Assembly (NCBI GenBank): GCA_024277025.1
Contig: JAJRWA010000048.1
Span: forward strand, 29,653 to 93,652
Source: Candidatus Krumholzibacteriota bacterium
Lineage (GTDB): Bacteria; Krumholzibacteriota; Krumholzibacteriia; LZORAL124-64-63
DNA length: 64,000 nucleotides
Direction of reading: 5' to 3'
This document shows positions 9,005 through 63,590 of this stretch, one piece after another (within the stretch, counting starts at the first letter, position 1; the number at the start of each line of letters is the position of its first letter). Under the pieces are notes generated by a model. That model did no database searches. It had not been told where the DNA came from and saw only the letters and a program-made list of their open reading frames with translations. The translations under genes were made by a program, and so were the position numbers.

Positions 9005-9385
9005 GGATAGCTCCCGGTTGACACAATGGTGACACTACTGAGACGTCTGATCCGGAACAACAATCACAGATATGAAGATGTTTTTTGCCGCGAGATAGCC
9101 GACAAATACGACAAATCCCGGCGACACCCGGACCGAAGACTTATCCAGCGGTTTCTCTGCAAGGCCTGCAAGCACAGCTTCAGCACCCGGATTTTCAGCA
9201 CCACCTACTGGCAGAAGCGACAGCCCGCCATATGTGGAGTTGAATCGCCGCAATTTCGAAGGCTGGGGACAATACGGCGGACGGCGTAGTTGCGGGCGGC
9301 GCGAGGCGGAGGGAACTATCGATCCCGGTTTGGGTCAGGGCTGGTTCGGGAGGTTGGGTTGTGGGCTCTCGCCCCGGGGGGGGCG

Positions 9386-31389: not shown

Positions 31390-31397
31390 GTCCGGGG

Positions 31398-34859: not shown

Positions 34860-35367
34860 TTTGGCCGGCGCACTGAACCTGAAGACCGGAGTCCTGGTCC
34901 TGAGTGACAAGGGTTCCCGCGGCGAGCGCGAGGACGCCAGTGGCCCGGCCCTGCTGGACTTCCTGGCCGACCAGGGGGTGCCGGACGCCGAACTGGTCAT
35001 CCTGCCGGATGAGCGCCCGCTTATCGCCGAGTCCCTGGCGCGGTGGGCGGACCAGGAGGGTTTCGACCTGATCCTCACCTGCGGCGGCACCGGGGTTTCG
35101 CCCCGGGATGTCACCCCGGAAGCGACGCGCGACGTCATCACCACCGAGCTGCCGGGCTTCGGCGAACAGATGCGGGCGGTCAGCCTCACCAAGTCGCCCC
35201 ACGCCATCATCAGCCGGGCGACCGCCGGCATTCGCCGGCACACCCTGATCATCAACCTGCCGGGCAGTCCCCGGGCCGCGGTCGAAAATCTGGCCGCGGT
35301 CTGGCCGGCGGTGCCGCATGCGATAGCCAAGTTGCAGGGGGACGACGCGGACTGCGCCCAGGGTTAG
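34840..35367 (+). CDS. moaB: molybdopterin adenylyltransferase-like MoaB/MogA family protein
   Basis: LTCGGTGVSPRDVTPEA and GVLVLSDKGSRGEREDASG are typical of MogA/MoaB. The ATG at 34840 overlaps the moaC 3' end by 20 nt; alternative starts are GTG 34813 and TTG 34861. Confidence 0.75.
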   Translation: MATGRVDLAGALNLKTGVLVLSDKGSRGEREDASGPALLDFLADQGVPDAELVILPDERPLIAESLARWADQEGFDLILTCGGTGVSPRDVTPEATRDVITTELPGFGEQMRAVSLTKSPHAIISRATAGIRRHTLIINLPGSPRAAVENLAAVWPAVPHAIAKLQGDDADCAQG

Positions 35368-37184
35368 ACTTCAGCGGGTTGTTTGGTCCACCACAGGATC
35401 GTGTCGCGCAGTTGTTTGGCCTTCAGCGGCTTGGTCAGGAAGTCGTCCATGTTTGCGGCCAGGCACTTCTCCTTGTAGCCCGCCAGGGCGTGGGCCGTCA
35501 GGGCCACGATGGGAATGCGCCGGCCGGCATCCTCGAGCGCCCGAATCCTCGCGGTCGCGGCGAAACCGTCCATGACCGGCATCTGCACGTCCATCAGGAT
35601 CAGATCAAAACTGTTTTTCTCCCACAGGGCAACGCCCTCTTCGCCGTTCTCGGCCCATTTGATGTCGGCGCCGGCCTTCTGCAGGATGTGGGTGGCCAAC
35701 TTGGCGTTGACCAGGTTGTCTTCCACCAGCAGGATCCGGATTCCGCTCAGTTTCCGGTCATCGCCGTCGGCTGCCGGCGCGACGTCGGGCGTGGCGGCGA
35801 CCGGTGCCTGGCAGGAGGCCAGCGGCAAGGTGAAGGAGAACGTGCTGCCCTCGCCCTCGGTGCTCGCCAGTTTGATCTGGCCGTCCATCATGTTGATGAT
35901 GCGCGCGGAAATGGTCAGGCCCAGACCCGTGCCGCCGAACTGCCGTGTCGTGGTGCCGTCGGCCTGGCGGAAGGCTTCGAAAATGTGGGCCTGGTTGGCG
36001 GCCGGGATGCCGATGCCCGTGTCCTGCACGGCGAACCGGATCCGCGGCGAGTCGTTGCCCCGGTCCACGACGCTCACACTGAGCGTGACAGTGCCGTGTT
36101 CGGTGAATTTCAGGGCGTTGCCGACCAGGTTGGTCAGGACCTGCCAGAGGCGCAGGCTGTCCCCGAGCACCGCTTCGGGCAGGCCTGCCGCCAGCCTGAC
36201 TTCGAGTTTGTTGTGGCGGTCATCCGCCGCCGTCTGCAGCGGCTTGACGACGTTTTCCACCAGGTCGAGCAGGCGGAACGGCGCGGGATCCAGCTCGAAC
36301 TTGCCCGATTCGATCTTGGAGAAATCGAGAATCTAATTGATGACCCGCAGCAGGGTTTCACCCGAAATGCGGATGTCGTTCATGTACTCCCGCTGCGCCG
36401 GGTCCAGTTCGGTGTCGAGCATCAGGTTGGTCAGGCCGATGACCCCGTTCATCGGTGTGCGGATCTCATGGCTCATGTTGGCCAGGAACTCGCTCTTGGC
36501 GCGATTGGCCGCGACCACTTCGTCACGGGCGGCCTCCAGGTCATCCGCCCGCTGCCGCAAGTCTTCCTCGCGTTCGAGTCTCGTCCAGAACTCGCGATGG
36601 AAGTAGGCGCCCAGGGTGTGGACCTGGACCGTGTAGAACATCAGAAGCCCGGCCAGGGAGATCGCCCTGGTTTCGCCCGAGGCCAACAGCGTGATGATGT
36701 GCGGCAGCATGATCATGCCGACGAAGACGCGGAAGATCTTCATGCGGGGCGACAGGCTGCTGGTGGCGCTGGCCGCGATTCCGATACTGGTCATCACCAG
36801 GATGTAGTAGGACCAGCCCATACCGAAGTGGATCAGGACTCCGGCATTGCCCAGCCCCCAGACCAGGGCCGGAAACAGGGTGCCCAGGAAGAAGCGGTTC
36901 AGCCAGCGCCCGGGGTTCTTGTCGTAGCACGAGGCGAAGGATCGGGCCAACCGAATGCGCAAGAGCCCCGAGACCAGGTACAGGGCCGTCACACCCAACG
37001 ATGGCAACAGGGCTTCCGACTTGAGATCGGTCATCAGCATGACGATGATTGTCAGGGGCACATAGCTGAGGGCGACGCGCAGCGAACGGCGCGCCAGTTC
37101 CTGGTCGGCAGGACGGTTCAGCCGCAGGTTGTGGGCGGAATCACCTTGCTCGGTGGTCTGCAGGATTTGGGAATGTTCCATCAC
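35364..37184 (-). pseudogene. hybrid sensor histidine kinase (membrane sensor-HisKA-HATPase-REC) interrupted by an in-frame TAG; possible pseudogene or sequencing error
   Basis: The upstream half (36333..37184) has TM helices and an H-box, [18 protein letters not shown]...LLRVIN, then TAG (plus-strand cta at 36333-36335). Translation continues in frame as ILDFSKIESGKFEL. The second half (35364..36260 in the track) encodes HATPase_c (VGNALKFT...GGTGLGLTIS) and a receiver domain (ILLVEDNLVNAKL...DLILMDVQMPVMDG...TKPL). The stop replaces the conserved Asp of the NDILDFSKIE motif. Confidence 0.55.
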
Positions 37185-50412: not shown

Positions 50413-51120
50413 CTACTTCTGGACCGGTAGACCGGCTGCGGTCCAGGCCTTGATGCCGCCGTTCAGGTTGGTCACGCTGGTGAAACCGTGGTCGATCAGC
50501 AGACGAGCGGCGACGGTACTGCGGTTGCCCGACCGACAATAGACGAAGACCGGCTTGTCCTTGTACGCCGCCAACTCACCCAGTTTCTCCTGCAGGACCT
50601 GCACCGGCACCAGATGGGCATCCTTGAGATGGCCATCGCTGAATTCTCCGGCCGTGCGCACATCCAGGATGAACGGATCCACGTTGCTGATCAAAGCGGC
50701 GCCTTCGGCGGCGGACACTTCCGCATATCCCGTCGCGACCAGATCCACGGCTGTGATGGCACCTTTGGCCGAACCGGCCGTGAAGGGGTAGCTGCCCACT
50801 TGCGGCACCTTGAAATAGGCTTTCTCGCCCTCGGCCACCGGATAGCTCTTGTTCACGTCGAGGTCGGGGATGACAATCGTGATCGCCTGGCCAGTAGTTG
50901 ATTCCAGACGCACATAATCACCGCGGTATATGGTGAAGTTCTGCGGCTCGGCCGCCGTCGGGTCGACAGTCAGCACCCGCAGGCCGGCTTCGATACGGCC
51001 CGAAATGGCGGGGCCGGCGTGGTCGGCCTGGGACTGGTCGGCCGCTCCGCCACCATTGCAGGCGGCGATGATAATCAGCAGGCTCACGGACAGGATCAGG
51101 ACGGGGATGCGGCGGGCCAT
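50413..51120 (-). CDS. lipoprotein with C-terminal rhodanese-like (sulfurtransferase) domain
   Basis: Trimmed to MARRIPVLILSVSLLIIIAACNGG (ATG 51120, GGAGGA RBS). Rhodanese active-site loop VYCRSGNRS. Confidence 0.65.
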   Translation of the reverse strand: MARRIPVLILSVSLLIIIAACNGGGAADQSQADHAGPAISGRIEAGLRVLTVDPTAAEPQNFTIYRGDYVRLESTTGQAITIVIPDLDVNKSYPVAEGEKAYFKVPQVGSYPFTAGSAKGAITAVDLVATGYAEVSAAEGAALISNVDPFILDVRTAGEFSDGHLKDAHLVPVQVLQEKLGELAAYKDKPVFVYCRSGNRSTVAARLLIDHGFTSVTNLNGGIKAWTAAGLPVQK

Positions 51121-51489
51121 GGATTTCCTCCGGAAGAAATGACAGAGAGCAAATTCCGAACAGTGGGGATTATGTTTACGAAGTGTTGGCATGGCAAGGA
51201 ATTCCGAGCAATCTGGTCGAAAAGGAATTTCCAGAATGTTAGCAAATGTCAAAACATAGGAAATAAATGGGAGATGGCGGTTCCTTAACCGGATTTTAAG
51301 TTATTGAAAATAAATATCATAACGAAGAATGACGCCGTGGATTTTTTTTTTGATTTCCCAAACGAGTCGACTACATTTCTTGCAGTTAAGAAAAATCGCA
51401 ACAAAGAATGTGCGATGCTCCGGAACGGCCCACCCACCCAACCATGGGGCGAGCCCGGGCCTCCGGAAGAACTGCGAAAGGCGCCGCCG
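51121..51489 (+). promoter_or_regulatory. roughly 370-nt AT-rich (about 40% GC) intergenic leader upstream of the mrp/mbx-like operon
   Basis: A marked compositional dip in a 65% GC background. It contains ggaattccgag...ggaatttccag half-site repeats and a T10 run, so it probably holds the operon promoter and operators. Confidence 0.35.
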
Positions 51490-51990
51490 ATGAAGCGTGC
51501 ATTTCCCTTCCTGTTCGTGACGGTGGTCATGTGGCTGCTCTGGCTGGTTCTGGCCGGCAATCTGGATCCCCAGGAAATGCTGGCCGGCGCCGTGGTCGCC
51601 GTGCTGGTGGCGGCCCTGCGCAGCAGCGGACCCTGCCTGCTGGGTGGTCCCGAAGTCCTGCATCCCAGGCGGATTCTCTACGCCCTCGCCTACATCCCCT
51701 ACATGATCTGGGCCATTGTTCTGGCCAACCTGGACGTGGCCGGTCGCGTGCTCCGGCCGCGCCTGAAAATCAACCCCGGCATTGTCAAGGTCCGCACGAA
51801 CCTGCACAGCCAGGTCGGCCGCATGATCCTGGCCAATTCCATCACTCTGACCCCCGGCACCCTGTCGGTGGATATCGTCGGTGACGACATGTACATCCAC
51901 TGGATTGATGTCGAGTCGCGGGATGCCGAAGCCGCCACGCGCAAAATCGCCGCGGGCTTCGAAAAGTATCTGGAGGTCATCTTTGGTTGA
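51490..51990 (+). CDS. mrpE: Na+/H+ antiporter subunit E homolog (MrpE/MnhE; MbhA-like)
   Basis: Trimmed to MKRAFPFLFVTVVMWLLW (ATG 51490). Pattern typical of MnhE (LANLDVAGRVLRPRLKINPGIV...LANSITLTPGTLSVD). Confidence 0.7.
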   Translation: MKRAFPFLFVTVVMWLLWLVLAGNLDPQEMLAGAVVAVLVAALRSSGPCLLGGPEVLHPRRILYALAYIPYMIWAIVLANLDVAGRVLRPRLKINPGIVKVRTNLHSQVGRMILANSITLTPGTLSVDIVGDDMYIHWIDVESRDAEAATRKIAAGFEKYLEVIFG

Positions 51991-52243
51991 TCTGCTGTTG
52001 AAAGCCGCGCTGCAGTTCGCCGGCCTGGCCATTTTGCTGGGTACCTGGCGCCTGCTCAAGGGACCGGACGCGCCCAATCGCGTCGTTGCCCTGGATGTGC
52101 TCACCCTGGTGACCATGCCGTTGCTGGTCGGTCTGGCCATCATGGCTGACCGGGTGATCTACCTGGATGTCGCGCTGGTCTACGCCGTACTCGCCTTCCT
52201 GGGCGTGCTGGCTCTGGCCCGCTACTACGATCGGGGGATCTGA
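51983..52243 (+). CDS. mrpF: antiporter subunit F homolog (MrpF/MnhF; MbhB-like)
   Basis: TTG at 51983 overlaps the mrpE stop. A small 3-TM protein with MnhF-like RLLKGPDAPNRVVALDVL. Confidence 0.55.
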   Translation: MVDLLLKAALQFAGLAILLGTWRLLKGPDAPNRVVALDVLTLVTMPLLVGLAIMADRVIYLDVALVYAVLAFLGVLALARYYDRGI

Positions 52244-52244
52244 G

Positions 52245-52643
52245 ATGACTGATCTGATGCGACTCGTGGGGGCGTCCCTGACCTTTCTGGGGTCCGCGTT
52301 CCTGTTTCTGGGCGCGCTGGGCATCTTCCGCATGCCGGATATCTACAACCGCATGCAGGCCGGCACCAAGGCCACGACCCTGGGCAATATCCTGACCCTG
52401 ACCGGATTGGGCCTGCTGGCGCCGGCCTGGCTGCCCAAGATCATGCTGATCGTGCTGTTCGTGCTGATCACCAATCCCCTCAGTAGCCACGCCCTGGCGC
52501 GGGCGGCCCACCGCAGCGGCGTAACCCTGGCCCGCGAGACGATCTATGACGCTCTGCGCGAGGACGAGGAAGCGGCCGGCATCGGTCCCGGCTCGCCCGT
52601 GGAGATCGATGCGGCGGCCGGAAGTTCAGAGGTGACACCATGA
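52245..52643 (+). CDS. mrpG: antiporter subunit G homolog (MrpG/MnhG; MbhC-like)
   Basis: ATG 52245, 1 nt after the mrpF stop. MnhG-like RMPDIYNRMQAGTKATTLG. Confidence 0.7.
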   Translation: MTDLMRLVGASLTFLGSAFLFLGALGIFRMPDIYNRMQAGTKATTLGNILTLTGLGLLAPAWLPKIMLIVLFVLITNPLSSHALARAAHRSGVTLARETIYDALREDEEAAGIGPGSPVEIDAAAGSSEVTP

Positions 52644-52879
52644 TGTATCTGGATCTGCTGGTCTGCCTGGTCCTGGTCCTGTCCGGCGTGGCGGCCATGA
52701 ATACCCGCAATCTGGTTTCGGCTGCGGTCATGGTCGGCGTCGTCAGCCTGCTGGTCAGCTATCTCTTCCTGCGCATGGGCGCGCCCGACGTGGCGATGAC
52801 CGAGGCGTCCATCGGTGCGGGCCTCAGCACCATCATCTTCCTGATCGCCATCCGGCGCACCGAGGAGGAGGAGCGATGA
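52640..52879 (+). CDS. DUF4040-like small membrane subunit (MnhB N-terminal-domain homolog; MbhD-like)
   Basis: 79 aa with 2-3 TM helices. ATGA overlap with mrpG. Confidence 0.45.
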   Translation: MMYLDLLVCLVLVLSGVAAMNTRNLVSAAVMVGVVSLLVSYLFLRMGAPDVAMTEASIGAGLSTIIFLIAIRRTEEEER

Positions 52880-53589
52880 AACAGATCCTGTCGGTCGTGC
52901 TGCTGCTGGCCATGGGCTGGTTCCTGGTGGGGCTGGTGCCCCTGGGACAACCCACTGAGCCGGGCCGCGTGGCGCAGCACTATATAGACAACGGTATCGA
53001 CGAGAACCGCGGCGCCAACCTGGTGACCAGCGTTATCGTCAACTACCGCGGCTTCGATACGCTCGGCGAGGTGACGGTGCTCTTCCTGTCGGTCGCCGGT
53101 GCGGGCTTCGTCCTGCGGCGGCGCGACGGCCTGGTCCGCCACGAGCACCGGCCCTCAAGTGAGATCCTGCAAACCGGTGCCCGGATGCTCTTTGCGCCGA
53201 TCGTCGTGTTTGGCGCCTACATCTTCGTGCACGGACACCTGTCGCCGGGTGGCGGCTTCCAGGGCGGTGCGGTGATCGCCTCGGCGGTGATGCTGCTGCT
53301 GCTGGCCGATCGTTCCCACCACCTGCCGCACGGCCTGATGCACTGGCTCGAGTCCATGGCCGGCTTTGGCTACGTCATGGCCGGTGTGGCCGGTTTGGTC
53401 GTGGCCGGATCCTTCCTCTCCAACCAGGGCGTGCTGCCCCTGGGCACCTGGAACCGCCTGTTCTCGGCCGGCATCATCCCGATCATCTACATCCTGGTCG
53501 GGCTGAAGGTGGGCACCGAGCTGAGCTCGCTGCTCGACGTGATGATCGACACCGGCCGGCCCGCCCGGCAGGAAGGGGGCCGGTCATGA
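52876..53589 (+). CDS. MnhB-domain membrane subunit (MrpB-like; MbhE/F-like)
   Basis: The canonical MnhB motif NLVTSVIVNYRGFDTLGEVTVLF. ATGA overlap upstream. Confidence 0.7.
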   Translation: MKQILSVVLLLAMGWFLVGLVPLGQPTEPGRVAQHYIDNGIDENRGANLVTSVIVNYRGFDTLGEVTVLFLSVAGAGFVLRRRDGLVRHEHRPSSEILQTGARMLFAPIVVFGAYIFVHGHLSPGGGFQGGAVIASAVMLLLLADRSHHLPHGLMHWLESMAGFGYVMAGVAGLVVAGSFLSNQGVLPLGTWNRLFSAGIIPIIYILVGLKVGTELSSLLDVMIDTGRPARQEGGRS

Positions 53590-53954
53590 ACGCCGTGACG
53601 CCCGCGACCCTGTACCTGGTGACGGCGATCCTGCTGATCCTGATCGGCCTGGCCGGCGTCCTGGTGCGGCGCAATATCCTGAAGATGGTGCTGGGCTTTG
53701 CCCTGGCCGATACCGGCATCAACCTGCTGATCGCCACCCTGGGCAGCAACCCCGAACGCACCGCGCCCATCCTGGACAAACCTGAACTGTTGGCGAACCC
53801 CTCGCTGGTGGTCGACCCGATCCCGCAGGCCCTGGTGCTGACCGCCATCGTCATCGGTCTCGGGGTCACGGCCCTGATGCTGGCCTACGTCATTCGCCTG
53901 TACGCTCTGCGCCAGAGCCTGGACATCCGTGACTTCGGGAGGCTGAAGTGGTAA
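53586..53954 (+). CDS. NuoK/MrpC-like small membrane subunit (MbhG-like)
   Basis: 122 aa, 3 TM helices, NuoK-like MVLGFALADTGINLLIA. Confidence 0.7.
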   Translation: MNAVTPATLYLVTAILLILIGLAGVLVRRNILKMVLGFALADTGINLLIATLGSNPERTAPILDKPELLANPSLVVDPIPQALVLTAIVIGLGVTALMLAYVIRLYALRQSLDIRDFGRLKW

Positions 53955-56900
53955 TCGATCCCATCCTGCTGGTAGCCGTACCGCTTGGTGTTGCTTTCCT
54001 GCTGCCTTTGTTCAGCAAGCTGGGCCGGACCGCGGCCACGGCCGTGCAAGGGCTGACCATCGTGTTCACGGCCCTGGTGGCGGTGTCCTGGTTGCCCGGT
54101 CTGCTGGACGGAAGCCTGGCGCCGGCCAATATCCTGACCGGCGGCTACGACGCCCCGATCGCGATCAACCTGCACTTCGGCTTGACCGAGGCCGTGCTCT
54201 GTCTGCTGGCTTCGCTGACCGCCCTGGGCAGTTTGTCCTACCTGTCGGTGCGCGAAGACGAGCACACGATCGGGCGCAGCGGCCTGCTGCAACTGCTGAT
54301 CATGACCGGTGCCTTCGGCCTGATCATGACCCGCGACCTGTTCAACCTGTTCGTGTTCCTGGAGATCGCTTCCATCGGCACCTACGCCCTGGTCGCCTTC
54401 GGCAAGGAAGAGACCAGCCTCGAGGCCGGCTTCAAGTACATGCTGACCGGCGCGGTGGCGAGCATCTTCCTGCTGATCGGCATCGCCTTCCTGTACAAGC
54501 TGACCGGCACCCTGAACATCGACGACATGGTGGGCCGGATGCCGCCGGCCGCGACGGCGGGCCTGGCTACGGTCATCCTGTTCCTGCTGATGGGCATGGC
54601 CATCGAGCTGAAGCTGCTGCCGGTCAACGGACCGGCCCTGGACCTGTATGACGGCGCGGACCCCGGCGTGATGGCCCTGCTGGTGGGCACCGTGGTCAAT
54701 GGCGTGCTGTTTGCCTTCTGGAAGATCGCCCTGCTGGTGCCCGGCACCTGGGACACGGCGATCATGACCCTGGGCATGGTGACTTTCGTGGGCAGCAACC
54801 TGCTGGCTGTCGCCCAGGATCGGCCGCGGCGCATGCTGGGCTACAGCTCAAGTGCCCAGATCGGCTTGCTGGTCTTTCTGGTGCCCCTGGTGCAACAGGG
54901 CACGGTGGCGTTGGCGGGCGCTGGCCTGCTGTTGATCAACCACACGCTGGCCAAAAGCGGCCTGTTGTGGCTGTCGGGCAAACATGCGGGCGAGACGCGC
55001 CGTGAATGGACCGGTGCCTTTGCCGGCAGCGTGGTGATGCGCACGGCCCTGATCATCTTCATTCTGGCGATCACCGGCTTGCCGCCCTTTCCCGGCTTCT
55101 GGGGCAAGTGGCAGGTCCTGAGCGACCTGATGGCCGGCGGTTACGGCTGGTGGGCGCTGCCGCTGCTGATCGGCTCGCTGCTGGAATTCGTCTACTACTA
55201 CGGCTGGTACCGGTATGTGCGCACGCCGGCGACCAGCAACGTTTCGGCGCGGCCATTGGGCGGGGCTTCCGACCTGGGTGGGGTCGTGGCTTTTGCCCTG
55301 GCCGCGCTGGTTTTCGGCGTGTGGCTCATGCGGGATCTGCCCGTGATGGGTGACCGGGTGCTGGTCTTCCTGACCGGTGTGGGCCTGGTGTTGACGCTGT
55401 TGCGTCGCCTGCCCCGCGTGGTGCTGGCCGCGACCGCGACGGCGGCCCTGGGCCTCGCGGCCTGGATCATGGCCACCGGCGGCGGTTTCGACCTGACGAC
55501 TCCGTCGGGCCTGTTCCACCTGCTGATCATCGGGGCCGGTCTGCTGGTGTCGATCGCCGGTTTGGCCGGCAGCTCGGGCACCGGTGAACGCTTCCACGGT
55601 CTGTTTCTGATCATGATCGCCTCGCTGCTGCTGCTGGTCAGCACCGACAACCTCCTGCTGTTCTTCGTGGCTTGGGAAGTGATGACCTGGACCAGCTATC
55701 TGGTGGTCACCTCCGGCCGGCTGGGCGCCAAACCCGGCCAGCTGTACATGGTGTTTTCCGGCGCGGCCGGCTTCCTGCTGCTCGGCGGGTTCATGCTGGC
55801 CATCGGCGCCGGCCACACCACGATCACCGGTCTGGGTCTGCTGACCGGATCGACGGCGGCCTGGACCTGGGGCCTGCTCGTAACCGGCTTCCTCGGCAAG
55901 TCGGCCGCCTGGGGCCTGCACATCTGGGCACCCGGTGCTTACAGTGAAGCCCCAGACCTGTTCACGCCGTTCCTGTCGGGCGTGATCTCCAAGATCCCCA
56001 TGTTCGGGATCGCCATGGTGGCCTTCCGCATCGCCGCGGGCAACCTGCCGGCCATCGGCGCGGTGGACCTGACCTGGTTGTTGGCGCTGATCGGCGGCCT
56101 GACCGCCTTCGGCCTGACCTTGGCCGCGGTGTTCCAGGAGGATGCCAAGAAGTTGCTGGCCTACTCGTCGGTCGGCCAGGTGGGCTACATCGTGGTCGGC
56201 CTGGCGATCCTGACGCCCCTGGGCTGGACCGCCGCCATGTTCCACGTCGTGCACCATCTCTTGTTCAAGGGCCTGCTGTTCCTGGCCATCGCCGGCGTGA
56301 TCATGCGCACCGGCACGCGCACCATGTACGAAATGGGCGGCCTGATCAAACGGATGCCCGTCAGCTTCATTTCGGTGCTGATCGGCATCATTGCCCTGTC
56401 CGGCGTACCGCCGCTGGCCGGCTTCACCGGCAAATGGCTGCTCTACCAGGCGCTGCTGGCCAAGGGCTGGCTGTTCATTCTGGTGCTGATGATGTTCTCG
56501 TCGGTCGTGGCCTTCATCTATATGTTCCGCCTGATCCACTCGGTCTTTCTCGGGCAGCTCAAGCCCCGGCACCGGGACATCAAGGAGGCGCCGCTGCCCC
56601 TGGTCATCTCCGAGGTGCTGATGATCGCCGGCGTGATGGCCCTGGCGGTGTTCCCGCAACTGCTGCTCAATCCGCTGAACGCCATGATGCACACCCAGTT
56701 CGGCCTGGACGCCCTGCGTATCGACGGCACGGTGCTGACCACCATGAGCGGCCACACACTGAACGCGACAGGCATGATGGTGCTGGTCCTGGTAATGTTC
56801 GTGGCCATGTTCCTGGTGCTGCTTCTGGTCAGCCCGCCCATGCGCAAGATTCGGCAGCTGGACATTGGCTTCGCCGGCGAGGTGCCACCGCCGGCCGAGG

Positions 56901-57115
56901 AAATCCACTTCGCCTCGCGCTTCGCCCAGCCCTACGAGCGGGCCTGGGCACCTTTCCTCAAGCCGCGGGCGACAAACTTCTGGCGGTCGGTGACCGAGAA
57001 CACCGGCGGCGTGATCGAGGCCGTGCGCAAGATCTATTCGGGCAACGGGCAGACCTACGTCCTGTATCCGGTGCTGTTGGTGGTCGTGTTCGCCCTGTTG
57101 GGCCTGGGAAGGTAG
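53948..57115 (+). CDS. fused tandem antiporter-like subunit (two NuoL/M/N-MrpD-type modules in one 1055-aa protein; MbxH+H'-like)
   Basis: GTG 53948 with a GGGAGG RBS. Two complete Proton_antipo_M-type modules, each with the YSS.xQ.G motif (LGYSSSAQIGLLVF at about aa 300, LAYSSVGQVGYIVV at about aa 740) and conserved TM Lys/Glu positions. Confidence 0.75.
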   Translation: MVIDPILLVAVPLGVAFLLPLFSKLGRTAATAVQGLTIVFTALVAVSWLPGLLDGSLAPANILTGGYDAPIAINLHFGLTEAVLCLLASLTALGSLSYLSVREDEHTIGRSGLLQLLIMTGAFGLIMTRDLFNLFVFLEIASIGTYALVAFGKEETSLEAGFKYMLTGAVASIFLLIGIAFLYKLTGTLNIDDMVGRMPPAATAGLATVILFLLMGMAIELKLLPVNGPALDLYDGADPGVMALLVGTVVNGVLFAFWKIALLVPGTWDTAIMTLGMVTFVGSNLLAVAQDRPRRMLGYSSSAQIGLLVFLVPLVQQGTVALAGAGLLLINHTLAKSGLLWLSGKHAGETRREWTGAFAGSVVMRTALIIFILAITGLPPFPGFWGKWQVLSDLMAGGYGWWALPLLIGSLLEFVYYYGWYRYVRTPATSNVSARPLGGASDLGGVVAFALAALVFGVWLMRDLPVMGDRVLVFLTGVGLVLTLLRRLPRVVLAATATAALGLAAWIMATGGGFDLTTPSGLFHLLIIGAGLLVSIAGLAGSSGTGERFHGLFLIMIASLLLLVSTDNLLLFFVAWEVMTWTSYLVVTSGRLGAKPGQLYMVFSGAAGFLLLGGFMLAIGAGHTTITGLGLLTGSTAAWTWGLLVTGFLGKSAAWGLHIWAPGAYSEAPDLFTPFLSGVISKIPMFGIAMVAFRIAAGNLPAIGAVDLTWLLALIGGLTAFGLTLAAVFQEDAKKLLAYSSVGQVGYIVVGLAILTPLGWTAAMFHVVHHLLFKGLLFLAIAGVIMRTGTRTMYEMGGLIKRMPVSFISVLIGIIALSGVPPLAGFTGKWLLYQALLAKGWLFILVLMMFSSVVAFIYMFRLIHSVFLGQLKPRHRDIKEAPLPLVISEVLMIAGVMALAVFPQLLLNPLNAMMHTQFGLDALRIDGTVLTTMSGHTLNATGMMVLVLVMFVAMFLVLLLVSPPMRKIRQLDIGFAGEVPPPAEEIHFASRFAQPYERAWAPFLKPRATNFWRSVTENTGGVIEAVRKIYSGNGQTYVLYPVLLVVVFALLGLGR

Positions 57116-57119
57116 CGCG

Positions 57120-58034
57120 ATGGAACTGTTCCCCAAGATCGGTTGGACCCTGTTGAGCCTGTTCGTGGCCATCAACTACGGGTTCCTCATCAACGGACTG
57201 ATCCGCAAGGTCATGGCCCGGATCCAGGGCCGCTTCGGACCGCCCCTGTGGCAGCCGTACATCGACATGGGCAAGCTGCTGGTGCAGCGCAACTCGATCA
57301 TGCACGGCTACATGCATTGGCTGGGGCCGATCTTCCGCTCGGTCGGCGGCATGGGCGTGTACGTGCTGGTGCCGGTGGTGATCGGCGAACCGCGCCTGGC
57401 CGGGTTCAGCGACATGGGCGATCTGCTGCTGATGATGTACTTCATGTTCTTCGGCTCGCTGGGCATGGCTCTGGGTGCCGGGGATGCCGGTCATCCCCAC
57501 AGCCCGATCGGCGTCAGTCGCGGCCTGAGCCAGATGACGGCCTTCGAAATGCCTTTCATTCTGGCGGTGGTCGCCCTGGCCGCCCACGTGGGCAGCTTCG
57601 ACATCAACGCGATCATCGCCACCCAGCAGCACGGCGTGCTGAGCTGGAACCTGTTCGCCAATCCGTTTGCTTCGGCGGCGGCGTTCCTGGCCCTGCTGGG
57701 CATGAACATGTACGCGCCGTTCAATATCGTGGGGGCGCCGACGGAAATCCCCGTCGGTCCGGCCACCGAGTACCAGAACTCGTACCTGTCGCTGATGATG
57801 ATCGGCCGCAGTGCCCTGGCCATCGGCAAGATGGTCATGTTCATGGACCTTTTCCTCGGCGGGGCGCACTCGATCGGCGCGGCCGTGGTCAAGATCCTGG
57901 CCATTTACTTCTGGTCCGTCTTCGTGGGTGCGGTCTTTCCCCGCTTCCGCACCGAACAATCGGTTCGCTTTTTTTTGCGCTGGCCCACCGCCTTTGGCGT
58001 GGCGGGCGTGCTGCTGACCCAGTGGGTGAGGTAA
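57120..58034 (+). CDS. NuoH-like membrane subunit (MbhM/EchB/HyfC family)
   Basis: NuoH signature region IRKVMARIQGRFGPPLWQPYIDMGKLL. 8 TM helices. Confidence 0.75.
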   Translation: MELFPKIGWTLLSLFVAINYGFLINGLIRKVMARIQGRFGPPLWQPYIDMGKLLVQRNSIMHGYMHWLGPIFRSVGGMGVYVLVPVVIGEPRLAGFSDMGDLLLMMYFMFFGSLGMALGAGDAGHPHSPIGVSRGLSQMTAFEMPFILAVVALAAHVGSFDINAIIATQQHGVLSWNLFANPFASAAAFLALLGMNMYAPFNIVGAPTEIPVGPATEYQNSYLSLMMIGRSALAIGKMVMFMDLFLGGAHSIGAAVVKILAIYFWSVFVGAVFPRFRTEQSVRFFLRWPTAFGVAGVLLTQWVR

Positions 58035-58038
58035 AACG

Positions 58039-58707
58039 ATGAAGAAGTTCGATCCGGATCGACCCTGGGACCTGACGACCCTGCCGACGACCATGGCACC
58101 GCAGGGCTCGCGTCCCCACGCGCCGGTGGAGGACCAGTGCTTCCTCGGCGCCGAGGCCGATATCAAGCAGCCGCCCAAGCTGCAGGAGGCCGTGGCCACC
58201 ATCAAGAACTGGTTCCGGGCCAGCAGCCTGAACGTGCTGGCCTTCGGCACCGGCTGCGGCGCCATCGAGCTGCGTCCGCTGTCGACCAGCCGTTTCGACA
58301 TGTCGCGCTTCGGCATCCCCGGCGCGCCGACACCGCGCCAATCCAACGTGTTCATCATCTCGGGCTACCTGTCGGTCAAGACCCTCACACGCGTGATCCG
58401 CTGCTACGAGCAGATGCCCGATCCCAAGTGGGTCGTCGCCCTCGGCTCGTGCACCATCAACGGCGGCATGTACTGGGACTCCTACAACACGATCAAGGTG
58501 TTGGATCTGTACCTGCCGGTCGACGTCTACGTCAGCGGCTGCATGCCGCGGCCCGAGGCCCTGATCGCCGGTTTCCAGTACCTGATGGACGACGTGAAGA
58601 AAGGCAAGGCCAACGGCTGGCACCACTACCTGGAGAACCTCGAGTGGTACCGCGAGAACCAGAAACAAGTCATCACCGACTGGGATCTTCCCAACTACAA
58701 CTGGTAG
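58039..58707 (+). CDS. NuoB-like [4Fe-4S] small subunit (MbhJ/EchC-like) with roughly 60-aa N-terminal extension
   Basis: FGTGCGAIE, LGSCTINGG and VSGCMPRPEA match the NuoB Cys ligand contexts. The first motif has a single Cys rather than CC. Confidence 0.7.
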   Translation: MKKFDPDRPWDLTTLPTTMAPQGSRPHAPVEDQCFLGAEADIKQPPKLQEAVATIKNWFRASSLNVLAFGTGCGAIELRPLSTSRFDMSRFGIPGAPTPRQSNVFIISGYLSVKTLTRVIRCYEQMPDPKWVVALGSCTINGGMYWDSYNTIKVLDLYLPVDVYVSGCMPRPEALIAGFQYLMDDVKKGKANGWHHYLENLEWYRENQKQVITDWDLPNYNW

Positions 58708-58713
58708 GGAGCC

Positions 58714-59295
58714 ATGTTCGATATCAACCACGGCAATCTCGATGACAGCCCGGATGTGGGCCAGGAAATCGTCCGCCGGATCCACGACCGGTTCGGCGAC
58801 TTCCCCGCACGTTTCCAGAAGGCGGACCTGGTCCGGCTGGACGTGCCGCAGAAGGACATCATCCCGGTGCTGAGTTGGCTGCGCACCGAAACACCCTTCG
58901 TGCAGCTGACCCACCTGACGGCCGTCGACTGGCTGGAGGACGGCCAGTTCGAACTGATGTACCTGGTCACGGCGCCGGACCTGATGGTCAGTCTGCACCT
59001 GTGTGTGCGCCTGGACCGCGCCAAGGCCGAGGCCGAAAGCGTGTTCAACCTCTGGCTGCAGGCCGAGACCTACGAGCAGGAAATCAACGAGATGTTCGGC
59101 ATTCATTTCCCGGGCAGTCCCCGGCAGGGCGTGCCGTTCATCCTCGAGGGCTGGCGGGATATGCCACCCATGCGCCGCGACTTCGACACCGTGGCCTACT
59201 GCGACCGCACCCATCCGGTGCGTCCGGGCCGCGAGCACCAGGACAGCCGCGTGTATGTCGGCCGCAAGTTCGGCGAGAAGGGGTATCTCAAATGA
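58714..59295 (+). CDS. NuoC-like (30 kDa subunit; MbhK-like)
   Basis: Size, position between the NuoB and NuoD homologs, and the ERExxDMFGIxF-like stretch YEQEINEMFGIHF. Confidence 0.65.
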   Translation: MFDINHGNLDDSPDVGQEIVRRIHDRFGDFPARFQKADLVRLDVPQKDIIPVLSWLRTETPFVQLTHLTAVDWLEDGQFELMYLVTAPDLMVSLHLCVRLDRAKAEAESVFNLWLQAETYEQEINEMFGIHFPGSPRQGVPFILEGWRDMPPMRRDFDTVAYCDRTHPVRPGREHQDSRVYVGRKFGEKGYLK

Positions 59296-60476
59296 GCGTT
59301 TTTGACTACACCACCCAGCCGGGCTTCGACCTGATCAGCGAGACGCCCAACGCGGGCACGACCGTCGATCCCAAGGAAGTGCAGCTGTGGTTCGGCCCCC
59401 AGCACCCCGGCATCACCGGCAACATGTCGGTGCAGTTGTGGCTCGAGGGCGACACGATCAAGCGCGGCATCACCCACGTGGGCTATCTGCACCGCGGCTT
59501 CGAGAAGCTGATGGAGCGCCGCAAGTTCATCCAGAGTTTTCCCATCGTCTGCCGCATGTGCGTGGCCGAACCGGACACCACCGAGTACCTGCTGGCCTCG
59601 TCGCTGGAAGAGCTGTCCGGTCTTGACCAGGCCGTGCCGGAAAAAGGCCAGTGGTTGCGCACCCTGGTCATGGAGATGTCGCGCCTGCAGGTGACGCTGA
59701 TGGTCATGGGCGGCCAGGTGGGCACCATGGGCATGGGCACGGCACCCAACTGGACCTACACCCTGCGGGATTTTCTGCTCGACAGCTTCGAAGAGCTGAC
59801 CGGCGGCCGCGTCTATCACATGTACATCACCTACGGCGGTGTGCGGCGCGATCTGACCCCGGGCTTTGCCCAGCGGCTGGAAGCCACCCTGGACCGGATC
59901 GAGGAGCGCCTGCCGTACCTCGACGACCTGATCCTGAACTCGGCCGTGTTCCAGCAGCGCACCCAGGGCGTGAGCGTGGTGCCGGCCGAGTGGGCCGACG
60001 AACTGGGCATCACCGGGCCGGTGCTCCGGGCCATGGGCGTCGCCCGCGACACGCGCCGGGACTATCCCTACCTGAAGTACCCCGAGCTGGACTTCAAGGT
60101 CTGCACCGCCACCGGCAGCGACATCTACGCGCGGACCCAGGTCCGGCGCGCCGAGATCGCCGAGAGCATCCACATCATCCGCCAGATCCTGCAGATGATG
60201 CCGCAGGAGGGGCCCTACTGCGCCAAGCTGCCCAACATGCTGACCTGGACCATCCCGGCCGGCTCGACCTATGTGCGGGCCGAGTCCAGCCGCGGCGAAA
60301 TGGGTTTCGTGATGGTCACCGACGGCAGCGACACGATCCGGCGCGTGCATCTGCGCGGGCCGAGCTACACCAACGCCGTGACGATCCTGGAGCGCATGCT
60401 GCCGGGCATGAACATCGCCGATCTGTCGGCCACCATGGTCTCGCTGCAGACCTGTCCGCCGGAAATCGAGAGGTAA
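59292..60476 (+). CDS. NuoD/[NiFe]-hydrogenase large-subunit homolog (MbhL/MbxL-like) retaining 3 of 4 Ni-Fe ligand cysteines
   Basis: ATG 59292 (ATGA overlap). FGPQHPGITG matches NuoD FGPQHP. The N-terminal CxxC is CRMC, at aa 87 and 90. The C-terminus ends LQTCPPEIER, where a hydrogenase has DPCxxCxxR, so the second Cys is replaced by Glu. Confidence 0.75.
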   Translation: MSVFDYTTQPGFDLISETPNAGTTVDPKEVQLWFGPQHPGITGNMSVQLWLEGDTIKRGITHVGYLHRGFEKLMERRKFIQSFPIVCRMCVAEPDTTEYLLASSLEELSGLDQAVPEKGQWLRTLVMEMSRLQVTLMVMGGQVGTMGMGTAPNWTYTLRDFLLDSFEELTGGRVYHMYITYGGVRRDLTPGFAQRLEATLDRIEERLPYLDDLILNSAVFQQRTQGVSVVPAEWADELGITGPVLRAMGVARDTRRDYPYLKYPELDFKVCTATGSDIYARTQVRRAEIAESIHIIRQILQMMPQEGPYCAKLPNMLTWTIPAGSTYVRAESSRGEMGFVMVTDGSDTIRRVHLRGPSYTNAVTILERMLPGMNIADLSATMVSLQTCPPEIER

Positions 60477-60480
60477 GCGC

Positions 60481-62256
60481 ATGAGCCTGAAGAATGTCAT
60501 CGCTCCGTTTTCGGCCTGGGCCCGTGCGGTCCAGAAACCGTTCACGGTACCCACGGCCGAGACCTTCCGGCCCGGGGCCGACCGCTACCGCGGCTGGCAC
60601 ATCAACGACACCGAGCAGTGCATCGGCTGCGGCACCTGCAGCGACATCTGCCAGAACAGCGCCATCGACATGAAGCCGGTCGACGAACCGAACAAGGGCG
60701 ACAGCGGTCTGCGGCCCCTGGTCGACTACGGTCGTTGCTGCTGGTGCGCCCTGTGCGTGGATGTCTGCCCGAGCGGTTCGCTGGGCCTGAGCAGCAACTA
60801 CATCTGGATCGACCGCGACCCGGATGTGTTCCGCTACATTCCCGGCGTGGACCGGAAGGAATGGGACAGCGACGAGAAGGGCTGGCGCAAGGATGACGGC
60901 TTCAACCTGGTCGACCCGGACCGCGTGCCCATGCCGATGATGATGCCTGTCGAGGACCGGGTGAAGACCTGGGCCGAGGTCGTCCTGGGCTACACCGAGG
61001 CCGAGGCGCGGGCCGAAGCCGCCCGTTGTGTGGAGTGCGGCCTGTGCGTGGCCGCCTGTCCGGCGCACATGCACATTCCCGACTACATCGCGGCGATCCG
61101 CGACGGCCACTACGACGTGGCCGTGAACCACATCTACGACAACAACCCGCTGCCCGAGATGTGCGGCAAGGTCTGCACACGGCGCTGCGAGGATGTCTGC
61201 TCGATCGGCGTCAACGGCGATCCGCTGGCCATCCGCTGGCTGAAGCGCTTTGCGACCGAGCAGTTCAGCGACCTGAGCGCGGTGCTCAGCCACGAGCAGC
61301 CCCAGATCGGCACCGGCAAGTCGGTGGCCGTGATCGGCGGCGGCCCCGGTGGTCTGACGACAGCCTTCTATCTGGCGGTGCGCGGTTTCAAGGTGACGGT
61401 GTTCGAGGCCTTGCCCCAAGTGGGCGGCGCCACGTTCTTCGGCATCCCCAAGTACCGTTTCCCGCTGGGTTCGCTGGAGAAGCAGATCAAGCTGATGACC
61501 GACTGGGGGGTCGAGATCAAGACCAATCACAAGGTTGAGCCTGACGAATTCAAGCAACTGCAGCAGGATTACGATGCGATCTACATCGGCACGGGCCTGT
61601 TGAAACCATCGAGCCTGCGGGCCGAGGGCGAAGATCTGCCCGGGGTGATGCCGGCGATCGAGATGCTGATCGACCACCACCTGGGCAAGACGGTCGAGGT
61701 TGGCCAGCACGTGGTTGTCGTCGGCGGCGGCAACGTGGCCATCGACGCGGCGCGCATCAGCCGCCGTCTGGGCGCCGAGGTGACCATCGCCTACCGGCGC
61801 CGCCTGGAGGACATGCCGGCGGACTACGAGGAGATCGAGGACGCCGAGGCCGAGGGCGTGCACCTGATGACCCAGAACATTCCCCTGCGCGTGGAACAGC
61901 TGCCCGGCGGCCGGCTGGACTTCATCTGGGGCCCGGCCGAGATGATCAGCGAAGGCGGCGGCCGGCCGCGGCCCAAGCTGATCGAAGGCATCGAGAACCA
62001 TCTCGCGGTGGACAAGGTCATCGTGGCCATCGGTCAGAAGCCGGATCTGCGCTGGCTGCCCGCCGATGTGGCCGAGCAGATCAGCAACAGCTGGGGCGGG
62101 ATCACCTGCGACGAGAACGGCATGACCGCCGCGCCGGGCGTGTTTGCCGGCGGCGACCTGGTGAATTCCACGGCCGACGCGATCAGCGCCATCGCCGACG
62201 GGCTCAAGGCTGTCGACGGCATCATCAACTATCTTGGCCTGGGCACCAAGCCGTAA
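60481..62256 (+). CDS. fusion of NuoI-like 2x[4Fe-4S] ferredoxin with GltD/SudA/NfnB-like FAD/NAD(P)H oxidoreductase
   Basis: The N-terminal region has CIGCGTCSDICQ and CCWCALCVDVCP (two 4Fe-4S motifs). Next come CVECGLCVAACP and GKVCTRRCEDVC, the Fe-S domain typical of the GltD small-subunit family. Then AVIGGGPGGLTTAF (FAD) and VVVVGGGNVAIDAA (NAD(P)) Rossmann motifs, and a C-terminal GVFAGGDL. Confidence 0.75.
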   Translation: MSLKNVIAPFSAWARAVQKPFTVPTAETFRPGADRYRGWHINDTEQCIGCGTCSDICQNSAIDMKPVDEPNKGDSGLRPLVDYGRCCWCALCVDVCPSGSLGLSSNYIWIDRDPDVFRYIPGVDRKEWDSDEKGWRKDDGFNLVDPDRVPMPMMMPVEDRVKTWAEVVLGYTEAEARAEAARCVECGLCVAACPAHMHIPDYIAAIRDGHYDVAVNHIYDNNPLPEMCGKVCTRRCEDVCSIGVNGDPLAIRWLKRFATEQFSDLSAVLSHEQPQIGTGKSVAVIGGGPGGLTTAFYLAVRGFKVTVFEALPQVGGATFFGIPKYRFPLGSLEKQIKLMTDWGVEIKTNHKVEPDEFKQLQQDYDAIYIGTGLLKPSSLRAEGEDLPGVMPAIEMLIDHHLGKTVEVGQHVVVVGGGNVAIDAARISRRLGAEVTIAYRRRLEDMPADYEEIEDAEAEGVHLMTQNIPLRVEQLPGGRLDFIWGPAEMISEGGGRPRPKLIEGIENHLAVDKVIVAIGQKPDLRWLPADVAEQISNSWGGITCDENGMTAAPGVFAGGDLVNSTADAISAIADGLKAVDGIINYLGLGTKP

Positions 62257-62267
62257 GGGAGAGCGCA

Positions 62268-62747
62268 ATGGTACGTGAAGGCGACGCGGGCAAGAAGAAC
62301 TTCAGCTCGGTGGACGACGCCATCGAGTTCGCGATCGGGCAGGAGATCAAGGCCGCGAATTTCTACCGCGAATTTGCCGGCAAGGCCACCCATCCGGGCG
62401 TGAAGAAGATGTGCACCGAGATGGCTGTGGAAGAGGACCGGCACAAGGAAATGCTGGAGAAACTCAAGGCCGGGCTGCCCTCCGGGCTGGCGACCGACCG
62501 GGTCACGGACCTGAAGATCAGCGACTATCTGCGCAGCTTCCGCATCGAGCCGGAGGCCGACCAGCAGGATCTGTTGATCGCCGCCATGAAGAGCGAAGCC
62601 CGCGCCGAACAGCTCTACCTGGACCTCGCGGCGATCTGCACCCTGCCCGACGTCAAGGAAGTGCTGTTGCGCCTGGCCGCCGAAGAGGGCGGCCACAAGG
62701 ACGTGTTCGAAAAGGAATACGACGACAATATCCTGGGCTCGAACTGA
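62268..62747 (+). CDS. rubrerythrin/ferritin-like diiron-fold protein
   Basis: Two E..H-type helix motifs (EIKAANFYREFA...EEDRHKEM and EARAEQLY...EEGGHKDVF). Confidence 0.55.
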   Translation: MVREGDAGKKNFSSVDDAIEFAIGQEIKAANFYREFAGKATHPGVKKMCTEMAVEEDRHKEMLEKLKAGLPSGLATDRVTDLKISDYLRSFRIEPEADQQDLLIAAMKSEARAEQLYLDLAAICTLPDVKEVLLRLAAEEGGHKDVFEKEYDDNILGSN

Positions 62748-62753
62748 GCGGCC

Positions 62754-63590
62754 CTACTTGTCGCCGAACCCGGCGCGCAGTTTGTCCAGCAGGTCCAGCG
62801 CCTCGATGTCGTTGGTCGCCGCGATGTCCTTCAATGACTGCTGCGGGTCCACCGTCAGGCCGGCTGCTTCCAGAATGCCGACGGCCTCACCCAGGTCCCG
62901 ATTGTAGTTCTCGCAGAATACGGCCAGGCTCAGCCGCCCCGAGCCCATGGGCATTGAAGTGGGGATCGCTTTGGGACCGGTCGGCCACTGTTCGGCCGGA
63001 CCTTTCATGATCTCGAACAGTTCGTGGGGTGAGAGGCCGTTGTCGTGGGCCAGTTTGGCAATGGTCACGTCCGGATCGGCAACCTCGATACCGGCTGCCG
63101 CCAGATGCGTTTTGGCCACATCCTTGTCCAAACCCACGTTGCGCAGGAATATGCGCAGGCCCGACTCTTCGGCGTGCCCGTAAGGGGGTTCGCCCAGAGC
63201 CAGCGCCGCATCGTCTTTGATTCCCTCACCCAGATTCTGGACCCAGACCATTGGGGGCACTTCCAGCAGCGTCAACGTGGCCACCACCGCCGTCACGCCC
63301 AGGGCCACATTGAAGTTCGGCGTGAAGAGTCGGAAATCCCGTGCCTTGTTCTTCATGTAGCTGGTTACCGGGCGCCAGTTGTAGTAGAGGTGGAAGAATC
63401 CGGCCAGCAGCATCAGGAAGCCTGAATTGGTGTGCAGGTTGCCCCATTGCGTCTTGGTCAGGCCCCATAATGACCAGTCGCTCCAGTAGGCGACCCGCCC
63501 CTGGGGCACGATGAACAGGATGATGCTGGAGGTGAGCATCAGGGCGATTGACATCAGCAGGGTCAACGAAACAATGCGGCGCAAGCTCAC
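62754..63590 (-). CDS. hypothetical integral membrane protein (DUF4405-like N-terminal TM pair plus soluble domain)
   Basis: Two N-terminal TM helices with conserved His/Trp (WGNLHTNSGFLML...FHLYYNW). Convergent with the rubrerythrin gene. Confidence 0.4.
   Translation of the reverse strand: MSLRRIVSLTLLMSIALMLTSSIILFIVPQGRVAYWSDWSLWGLTKTQWGNLHTNSGFLMLLAGFFHLYYNWRPVTSYMKNKARDFRLFTPNFNVALGVTAVVATLTLLEVPPMVWVQNLGEGIKDDAALALGEPPYGHAEESGLRIFLRNVGLDKDVAKTHLAAAGIEVADPDVTIAKLAHDNGLSPHELFEIMKGPAEQWPTGPKAIPTSMPMGSGRLSLAVFCENYNRDLGEAVGILEAAGLTVDPQQSLKDIAATNDIEALDLLDKLRAGFGDK

Follow-up and report, generated by a model that had tools for sequence, protein, structure and literature searches.

Does the NuoD-like protein encoded at positions 59292-60476 of a 64,000-nucleotide stretch from a Candidatus Krumholzibacteriota bacterium (contig JAJRWA010000048.1 of assembly GCA_024277025.1) belong to a hydrogenase, and if not, what might the complex around it do? 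An earlier interpretation, made from the letters and open reading frames alone (the sequence-only reading), had described the protein as a homolog of NuoD and of [NiFe]-hydrogenase large subunits that keeps three of the four metal-ligand cysteines, and had argued that it is Mbx/Mbs-type and no true H2-evolving enzyme. We analyzed the whole stretch (the window) and found that this protein, here called L, is close to certainly the MbsL/MbxL subunit of a bacterial Mrp-Mbx (MBS-like) complex and not a hydrogenase. L descends from the large subunit of group 4 [NiFe]-hydrogenases, and the NiFe centre is no longer held.

The reading frame had been delimited exactly: it lies on the plus strand, encodes 394 residues plus a stop codon, and opens with an ATG that shares bases with the TGA ending the NuoC-like gene before it. 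Both strings quoted from it are present, IVCRMCVAEP at residues 85-94 (nucleotides 59544-59573) and LQTCPPEIER at residues 385-394 (nucleotides 60444-60473), the latter forming the final ten residues of the protein. To fix the register of these motifs we used HMMER alignments of L with MbsL, L with Nqo4, HycE with MbhL and HycE with Nqo4, together with two MAFFT alignments, all of which agreed. The hydrogenase L1 motif R-x-C-G-x-C falls on R88-M-C90-V-A-E93, and therefore C90 occupies the position of NiFe ligand 1 (MbsL C85, Thermus position 86) while ligand 2 is replaced by Glu93. C87, three residues ahead of the L1 motif, is outside the ligand positions; its column holds Glu in MbhL, Asp in HycE, Leu82 in MbsL and Pro in Nqo4. 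The L2 motif DPCxxCxxR corresponds to Q-T-C388-P-P-E391-I-E-R394; C388, the equivalent of MbsL C385, keeps ligand 3, and Glu391 stands at the position of ligand 4.

Of the four ligand cysteines, L thus retains only the first and the third; it has one extra non-ligand cysteine and carries Glu at both bridging-Cys positions. Neither RxCGxC nor DPCxxCxx(R/H) retains both of its cysteines, the second being Glu in each case. The "intact N-terminal CxxC" of the sequence-only reading was an error of register, as the CxxC that it had recognized is offset by three residues from the CxxC of L1; its count of three ligand cysteines falls to two (C90 and C388), C87 being at no ligand position. The C-terminal assignment proved sound: the first Cys and the terminal Arg of the L2 motif are kept and the second Cys is Glu. 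A comparison of ligand columns, of the kind that had been suggested as a check and here made with MbhL, MbsL, HycE and Nqo4, therefore upheld the correspondence at L2 but not that of the full CxxC at L1. The protein also ends as described, with the stop codon directly after R394 and no C-terminal extension, although this absence is not diagnostic of a non-hydrogenase on its own. Published work describes this state, with only the first and third NiFe cysteines, in MbsL as well as in NuoD homologs of the mbx and mbx-like types (PMC7684303, PMC8165549, PMC4758237). The annotation is corrected accordingly: L is neither a hydrogenase nor a "3-Cys" intermediate between hydrogenases and Mbx, and carries a standard, documented two-Cys vestige.

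Similarity searches pointed to the same family. L matched Pfam Complex1_49kDa (1.2e-66) and scored just above the cutoff of NCBIfam PRK06075, by which it would be named NuoD. Its best match among solved structures was Pyrococcus furiosus MbsL (6U8Y_L, 3e-88, about 40% identity), followed by Thermus thermophilus Nqo4 (4e-58) and many 49-kDa subunits of complex I. Hydrogenase matches were weaker, at 8e-40 for MbhL (6CFW_L) and 2e-30 for Escherichia coli HycE (7Z0S_E). With group 4 hydrogenases L shares the fold, the ancestry, the arginine of L1, the terminal arginine of L2, and partners like NuoB, NuoC, NuoH and NuoI. Unlike in those enzymes, both bridging cysteines are Glu, and the proton-relay Glu21 of MbhL aligns with G43 of L (Gly in 118 of 119 homologs). 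No homolog of Hyp proteins or of HycI was found in the window, either by Pfam scans of its about 50 predicted genes or by tblastn with E. coli HypA-F and HycI, a search in which HycE and HycG, used as positive controls, matched L and J (the NuoB-like subunit). The complete hyp/endopeptidase set that the sequence-only reading had named as evidence for the opposite view is thus absent from these 64 kb. Together with MbsL as the top structural match and the MBS gene order, the Gly at the Glu21 position and the lack of Hyp and HycI in the window bear out its conclusion that L is of the Mbx/Mbs type.

The homology to complex I (Nqo4/NuoD and Nqo6/NuoB) is strong, but the residues expected of a quinone reductase are missing. 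His38, Tyr87 and Asp139, which bind quinone in Nqo4 (Thermus numbering), are replaced in L by Thr42, Val91 and Thr145. The NuoB-like J has G-C in place of the tandem C-C that ligates cluster N2, and the complex contains no NuoE/F/G module. At the level of sequence, then, the complex fails the defining motifs of both [NiFe]-hydrogenases and quinone-reducing complex I.

What surrounds L is an operon of 12 tightly packed plus-strand genes, about 51.4-62.3 kb, in which L is the 11th and many start and stop codons overlap or nearly abut (Table 1). Its order, A-B-C-D-E-G-(H+H' fused)-M-J-K-L-N, is that of the MBS genes, and it includes a complete Mrp-type membrane arm with two antiporter-like modules. 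NCBIfam resolves the fused H-H' protein into a NuoN-like part (residues 3-419) and a NuoM-like part (residues 514-1051).

J and N are the subunits most informative about electron transfer. In a residue-level alignment, C73 (nucleotides 58255-58257), C138 (58450-58452) and C168 (58540-58542) of J match MbsJ C28, C93 and C123, the three ligands of the MBS proximal cluster. The position of the non-ligating MbsJ C25 is occupied by Gly, and the motif contains no fourth Cys; J is accordingly predicted to carry a three-Cys proximal [4Fe-4S] cluster as in MBS. A placement of C87 near this cluster, which took the dimethylated Arg85 of the bovine 49-kDa subunit as the L1 arginine, was dropped; Arg85 lies in HIGLLHRGTEK and corresponds to R68 of L.

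N is a fusion. Residues 9-117 match MbsN (6U8Y_N, 1.8e-20), whereas residues 147-586 match P. furiosus NfnII (5VJ7_A, 7.5e-83), NfnI (5JCA_L) and Thermotoga maritima NfnB (4YLF_B), with values ranging from 1e-75 to 1e-83. The MbsN part is NuoI-like and holds two CxxCxxCxxxC motifs (residues 47 and 86) for two predicted [4Fe-4S] clusters; the Fer4_20 domain, a two-cluster domain, shows one such motif (residue 183). The dinucleotide folds for flavin adenine dinucleotide (FAD) and NAD(P)H are intact, with GxGxxG at residue 286, and an AYRR motif is common to this module and P. furiosus NfnII. NCBIfam PRK13984 matches N over its full length with a score below cutoff. Like members of the NfnB/SudA/GltD family, the C-terminal 440 residues thus combine Fer4_20 with FAD and NAD(P)H folds; in contrast to that family, a ferredoxin domain of the NuoI/MbsN type is fused to the module, and the operon holds no gene for an NfnA partner. 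Because that partner is missing, simple electron input of the GltD kind is more likely here than electron bifurcation, which we do not favour.

To learn which of these features are general, we compared relatives of L, of which 3429 were found at E <= 1e-10 among 8000 candidates scored. C87, C90, E93, C388, E391 and R394 were invariant in the 119 top homologs (at least 59% identity), so this pattern is no chance motif. In a MAFFT alignment of 150 representatives drawn from a library clustered at 50% identity, the corresponding CCE/CER pattern was confined to this family; the other patterns were xC[DE]/C[DE]R in other Mbx-like sequences, ECC/CCR in hydrogenases and DD./VER in NuoD types. A locus scan with one genome per species yielded 46 related loci and one distant match at 26% identity (L048). 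The closest came from Krumholzibacteriia (92% identity) and from metagenome-assembled genomes (MAGs) labelled 'Lysobacterales' (84%), and others from Planctomycetota, Acidobacteriota, Gemmatimonadota, Bacteroidales/Draconibacterium, Marinimicrobia, Cloacimonadales, Delongbacteria, Aminicenantes and Spirochaetes. All of the 46 that were long enough to judge share the gene order with fused H-H' and fused N-NfnB, and the latter fusion occurs in every related locus that reaches past the N-terminal ferredoxin part of N. A rubrerythrin gene after N is found in the closest relatives only. In one more distant locus (L053, L 57% identical), N-NfnB is followed instead by a dihydroorotate-dehydrogenase-like gene (8074-9054, PF01180), a pair that resembles the domain combination of dihydropyrimidine dehydrogenase.

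The vestigial cysteines are less constant than their surroundings. C388 is replaced by Tyr with C90 retained in five loci (L028, L034, L035, L037 and L043), and nine further loci, from Marinimicrobia, Cloacimonadales and Spirochaetes, combine Ala90 with Tyr388 (L021, L026, L030, L033, L036, L038, L039, L042 and L044). Glu93, Glu391 and Arg394, on the other hand, are invariant in 46 of 46. So is the presence of a Cys at residue 87 (in VCR) or 86 (in [TI]C[IV]R), even in loci that have lost both C90 and C388; that some relatives lose the vestigial cysteines yet all 46 keep this upstream one is the minor new point of our analysis. The dispensability of C90 and C388 in relatives agrees with the report that the P. 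furiosus MbsL C85A/C385A enzyme is active, catalysis having been assigned to the three-Cys proximal cluster (PMC7684303), and their loss argues against a conserved metal site at the former NiFe position. We considered a mononuclear site of two Cys and two Glu at that position and judged it unlikely to be conserved, as the relatives with Ala90 and Tyr388 keep both Glu. The comparative pattern also suggests targets for mutagenesis, with the vestigial cysteines dispensable and the acidic residues and the upstream Cys invariant.

The J motifs GTGCG[AS][IVM]E, GSC[TP][IV]NGG and GCMPRPE are conserved in 45 loci. Where P. furiosus MbsJ and an unfused Mbx relative (L050, J at 4381-5004, with a separate 197-residue N) have CTGCG, in the CxxC form, the NfnB-fused clade has GTGCG with a single Cys. 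P. furiosus MbsL and the same unfused relative lack the Cys at L-86/87, so that loss of the J cysteine coincides with gain of the L cysteine in a comparison of two phylogenetically non-independent clades.

On the basis of these features, L is probably a subunit of an MBS-like, ion-translocating oxidoreductase that moves electrons from NAD(P)H to a hydrophobic acceptor in a pocket formed by L, J and M. In the NfnB/GltD-like module on N, FAD would take up a hydride from NAD(P)H; single electrons could then travel by way of the two predicted [4Fe-4S] clusters of that module, and next the two of the MbsN part, to the proximal [4Fe-4S] cluster of J. With three Cys ligands, as in P. furiosus MBS, that cluster would have one open Fe, at which the acceptor may be reduced. 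The Mrp-like membrane arm (A-G and fused H-H') would couple this reduction to translocation of H+ or Na+. The fusion in N strongly implies NAD(P)H as the donor. Both the acceptor and the reaction's direction are inferred; by analogy with MBS, the acceptor would be sulfane sulfur or polysulfide. For bacteria, support for a link to sulfur is limited to the 4.4-fold induction of T. maritima mbxA by elemental sulfur (PMC9431562).

Several points weigh against this account. The acceptor rests on analogy, no member of the NfnB-fused bacterial clade having been purified to date. The potential gap between NAD(P)H and polysulfide, estimated at about 50-100 mV, is modest for two antiporter-like modules. 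The sole local hint of sulfur metabolism, a rhodanese gene (50413-51252, minus strand), is no conserved neighbour in the 46 loci. The pocket itself differs from that of P. furiosus MBS, with an extra invariant Cys at L-86/87 and no counterpart of MbsJ C25. Older literature, moreover, gives Mbx the opposite role, from ferredoxin to NAD(P)+.

That older role is the core of one rival explanation, in which the complex would be a ferredoxin:NAD(P)+ oxidoreductase resembling Rnf: reduced ferredoxin would feed the clusters, NAD(P)+ would be reduced at the NfnB/GltD-like domain, ions would be exported, and the L/J pocket would be no more than a relic, structural or coupling in nature. It is the original Mbx model, was applied by Degli Esposti in 2015 to gltD-bearing mbx-like operons (PMC4758237), and was also used in an analysis of Mesotoga; the fused domain of N, furthermore, is closest to NfnB, the subunit of Nfn that handles both ferredoxin and NADPH. 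We nevertheless consider it rather improbable and rank it below the account above, since the NAD(P)H module, through its fusion to N, occupies the far end of the cluster chain, and since the residues of the pocket do not vary. Electrons passing from ferredoxin to NAD(P)+ would bypass the proximal cluster and the L/J/M pocket, whereas the conservation of the three-Cys J motif and of L E93, E391 and R394 across related loci speaks for a functional site. In P. furiosus MBS the electrons come from reduced ferredoxin, which presumably docks at the N subunit; in that case the fused module would more probably stand in for ferredoxin than work alongside it. For P. furiosus Mbx itself, the ferredoxin:NADP+ model has been superseded by sulfane-sulfur reduction (PMC7684303, PMC8165549).

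Other rivals keep the architecture and alter the chemistry. The pocket might accept a quinone-like or otherwise hydrophobic molecule, or handle a disulfide or persulfide through the clade-specific Cys (C87-x-x-C90 here), or the reaction might run in reverse, with an ion gradient driving reduction of NAD(P)+ from a sulfur donor. This group of possibilities, which we consider unlikely but credible, draws on the retention of the L-86/87 Cys by every one of the 46 NfnB-fused loci, those without C90 and C388 included, and on its absence from P. furiosus MbsL and the unfused Mbx relative, in each of which the second J cysteine is still present. The carriers of the fused operon also span many lifestyles, and a putative Mrp-Mbx complex, which may or may not belong to the fused clade, has been reported in the sulfur-oxidizing symbiont of Riftia. 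A quinone is hard to reconcile with the missing His38, Tyr87 and Asp139 and the missing tandem-Cys N2 motif; a catalytic or ligand residue with a precise role would not usually shift, as the extra Cys does, between residues 86 and 87; and its correlation with the loss of the J cysteine involves only two clades that are not phylogenetically independent. A specific form of the idea, in which the pocket is rebuilt relative to archaeal MBS and the L-86/87 Cys acts with the three-Cys cluster as a fourth ligand or as a thiol/persulfide relay, is doubtful; were it true, the complex would be an NADPH-linked ion-translocating reductase with a chemistry or acceptor unlike the polysulfide reduction of P. 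furiosus MBS. Most improbable by far is a true but unusual [NiFe]-hydrogenase with Ni-Fe held by C87, C90, C388 and carboxylates. The three Cys and two Glu in both motif regions, invariant among close homologs, could suggest it, but C87 is off the ligand positions, and Ala90 and Tyr388 occur in relatives that carry this same operon. The equivalent of MbhL E21 is Gly, and Thr stands where we take the closing His of the canonical RxCGxCxxxH motif to fall. The missing C-terminal extension, the lack of Hyp and HycI genes in the 64 kb, and a nearest structure, MbsL, without NiFe speak against it as well.

The preferred reading, an NAD(P)H-driven MBS-like complex, can be set against the systems that it most resembles. 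With P. furiosus MBS the operon shares the complement of subunits and the order of their genes (A-E, G, H, H', M, J, K, L, N), the retention of NiFe ligands 1 and 3 only with acidic residues at 2 and 4, the three-Cys J cluster, and the absence of quinone-binding residues and of the MbhL proton-relay Glu. The differences are that H and H' are fused, J lacks an equivalent of C25, L has C87 in place of MbsL Leu82, and N bears a flavoprotein of roughly 440 residues; as this part is of the NfnB/GltD-like, NAD(P)H-handling kind, the partner is likely to be NAD(P)H in place of ferredoxin. The hosts also differ, a hyperthermophilic archaeon as against a high-GC bacterium. Closer still are the mbx-like operons that Degli Esposti described in 2015 from Thermotoga and proteobacteria; these have a gltD-related flavoprotein, often a terminal rubrerythrin, and a NuoD with the first and third NiFe cysteines (PMC4758237). 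The likeness, as judged from the published description, extends to the Mrp-type arm, to a NuoI replaced by or fused to the gltD-related flavoprotein, and to the terminal rubrerythrin, while the window represents a new lineage whose nearest relatives are Krumholzibacteriia and 'Lysobacterales' MAGs (84-92% identity). By the criteria tested, the complex belongs with the MBS/MBX family and, more precisely, with these gltD-type bacterial operons. The architecture was therefore already described in 2015, and the gene in the window is an ordinary member of its family.

The family is of greater interest than the single gene. Mrp-Mbx complexes fused to an NAD(P)H flavoprotein are widespread in uncultured anaerobes, among them Bacteroidales, Marinimicrobia, Cloacimonadota, Spirochaetes, Acidobacteriota and Krumholzibacteriota, and may constitute a common, overlooked module for energy conservation or redox balancing.

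Table 1. Motif regions of L and genes of the Mrp-Mbx operon, with positions in the window.
Feature	Position	Strand	Evidence or remark
C87-R88-M-C90-V-A-E93, L1 region	59550..59570	+	C90, vestigial ligand 1; E93 replaces ligand 2; C87, extra clade-specific Cys
C388-P-P-E391-I-E-R394, L2 region	60453..60473	+	C388, vestigial ligand 3; E391 replaces ligand 4; R394, last residue
A, MbsA/MnhE-like membrane subunit	51415..51990	+	Pfam MNHE 2.7e-42; ATG at 51415, start uncertain, reading frame opens at 51304
B, MbsB/MrpF-like	51983..52243	+	Pfam MrpF_PhaF 2.6e-15; inferred TTG start after GGAGG; overlaps the A stop
C, MbsC/MnhG-like	52245..52643	+	Pfam PhaG_MnhG_YufB 6.6e-25; ATG at 52245, one base past the B stop
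D, MbsD (MbhD family)	52640..52879	+	Pfam MbhD 6.8e-22
E, MbsE (MbhE and MnhB domains)	52876..53589	+	Pfam MnhB 2e-24, MbhE 9.6e-10
G, MbsG (NuoK/MrpC-like)	53586..53954	+	Pfam Oxidored_q2 6.8e-25
H-H', fused MbsH-MbsH', 1055 residues, two antiporter-like modules	53948..57115	+	Pfam Proton_antipo_M (two stretches), NADHdeh_related
M, MbsM (NuoH-like), membrane anchor of the peripheral arm	57120..58034	+	Pfam NADHdh 5.1e-45
J, MbsJ (NuoB-like), predicted proximal [4Fe-4S]	58039..58707	+	Best PDB match 6U8Y_J, 2.2e-63
K, MbsK (NuoC-like)	58714..59295	+	Pfam Complex1_30kDa 3.2e-22
L, MbsL/MbxL (NuoD-like, derived from hydrogenase large subunit)	59292..60476	+	Pfam Complex1_49kDa; 6U8Y_L
N, 591-residue fusion of MbsN and NfnB/SudA/GltD-like module	60481..62256	+	Pfam Fer4_9/Fer4_7, Fer4_20, Pyr_redox_2
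Rubrerythrin-like diiron protein	62268..62747	+	Pfam Rubrerythrin 8.3e-18

Genes next to the operon and elsewhere in the window were also inspected. The rubrerythrin-like gene begins 12 nucleotides downstream of N; its product has two ExxH motifs (residues 56 and 140) and only two Cys, with no rubredoxin domain found in it. Convergent with this gene, at a gap of 6 nucleotides, lies a gene for a DUF4405 membrane protein (62754-63590, minus strand). The rhodanese gene, at the other end and divergent from the Mbx operon, encodes a 279-residue protein whose C-terminal part is a rhodanese domain, the N-terminal half (about 170 residues) being unassigned. We considered both neighbours as functional links and set them aside, since neither is conserved beside the operon in the 46 loci.

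Farther away, a 542-residue protein (9448-11076, minus strand) matches the thiol-activated (cholesterol-dependent) cytolysin family (Pfam, 1.9e-33), an unexpected find in a genome that has uncultured environmental bacteria, known from MAGs, as its closest relatives. A hybrid histidine kinase (35364-37184, minus strand) is seemingly split, with HisKA at the end of 36333-37184 and HATPase_c plus the receiver in 35364-36260, which may reflect a frameshift, a pseudogene or an assembly error. Finally, a 1946-residue protein with DUF11, CarboxypepD_reg and OmpA domains (25549-31389, minus strand) adjoins a second DUF11 protein (31398-32456, minus strand), and local GC content reaches up to 0.71 at these DUF11 genes (25549-32456).

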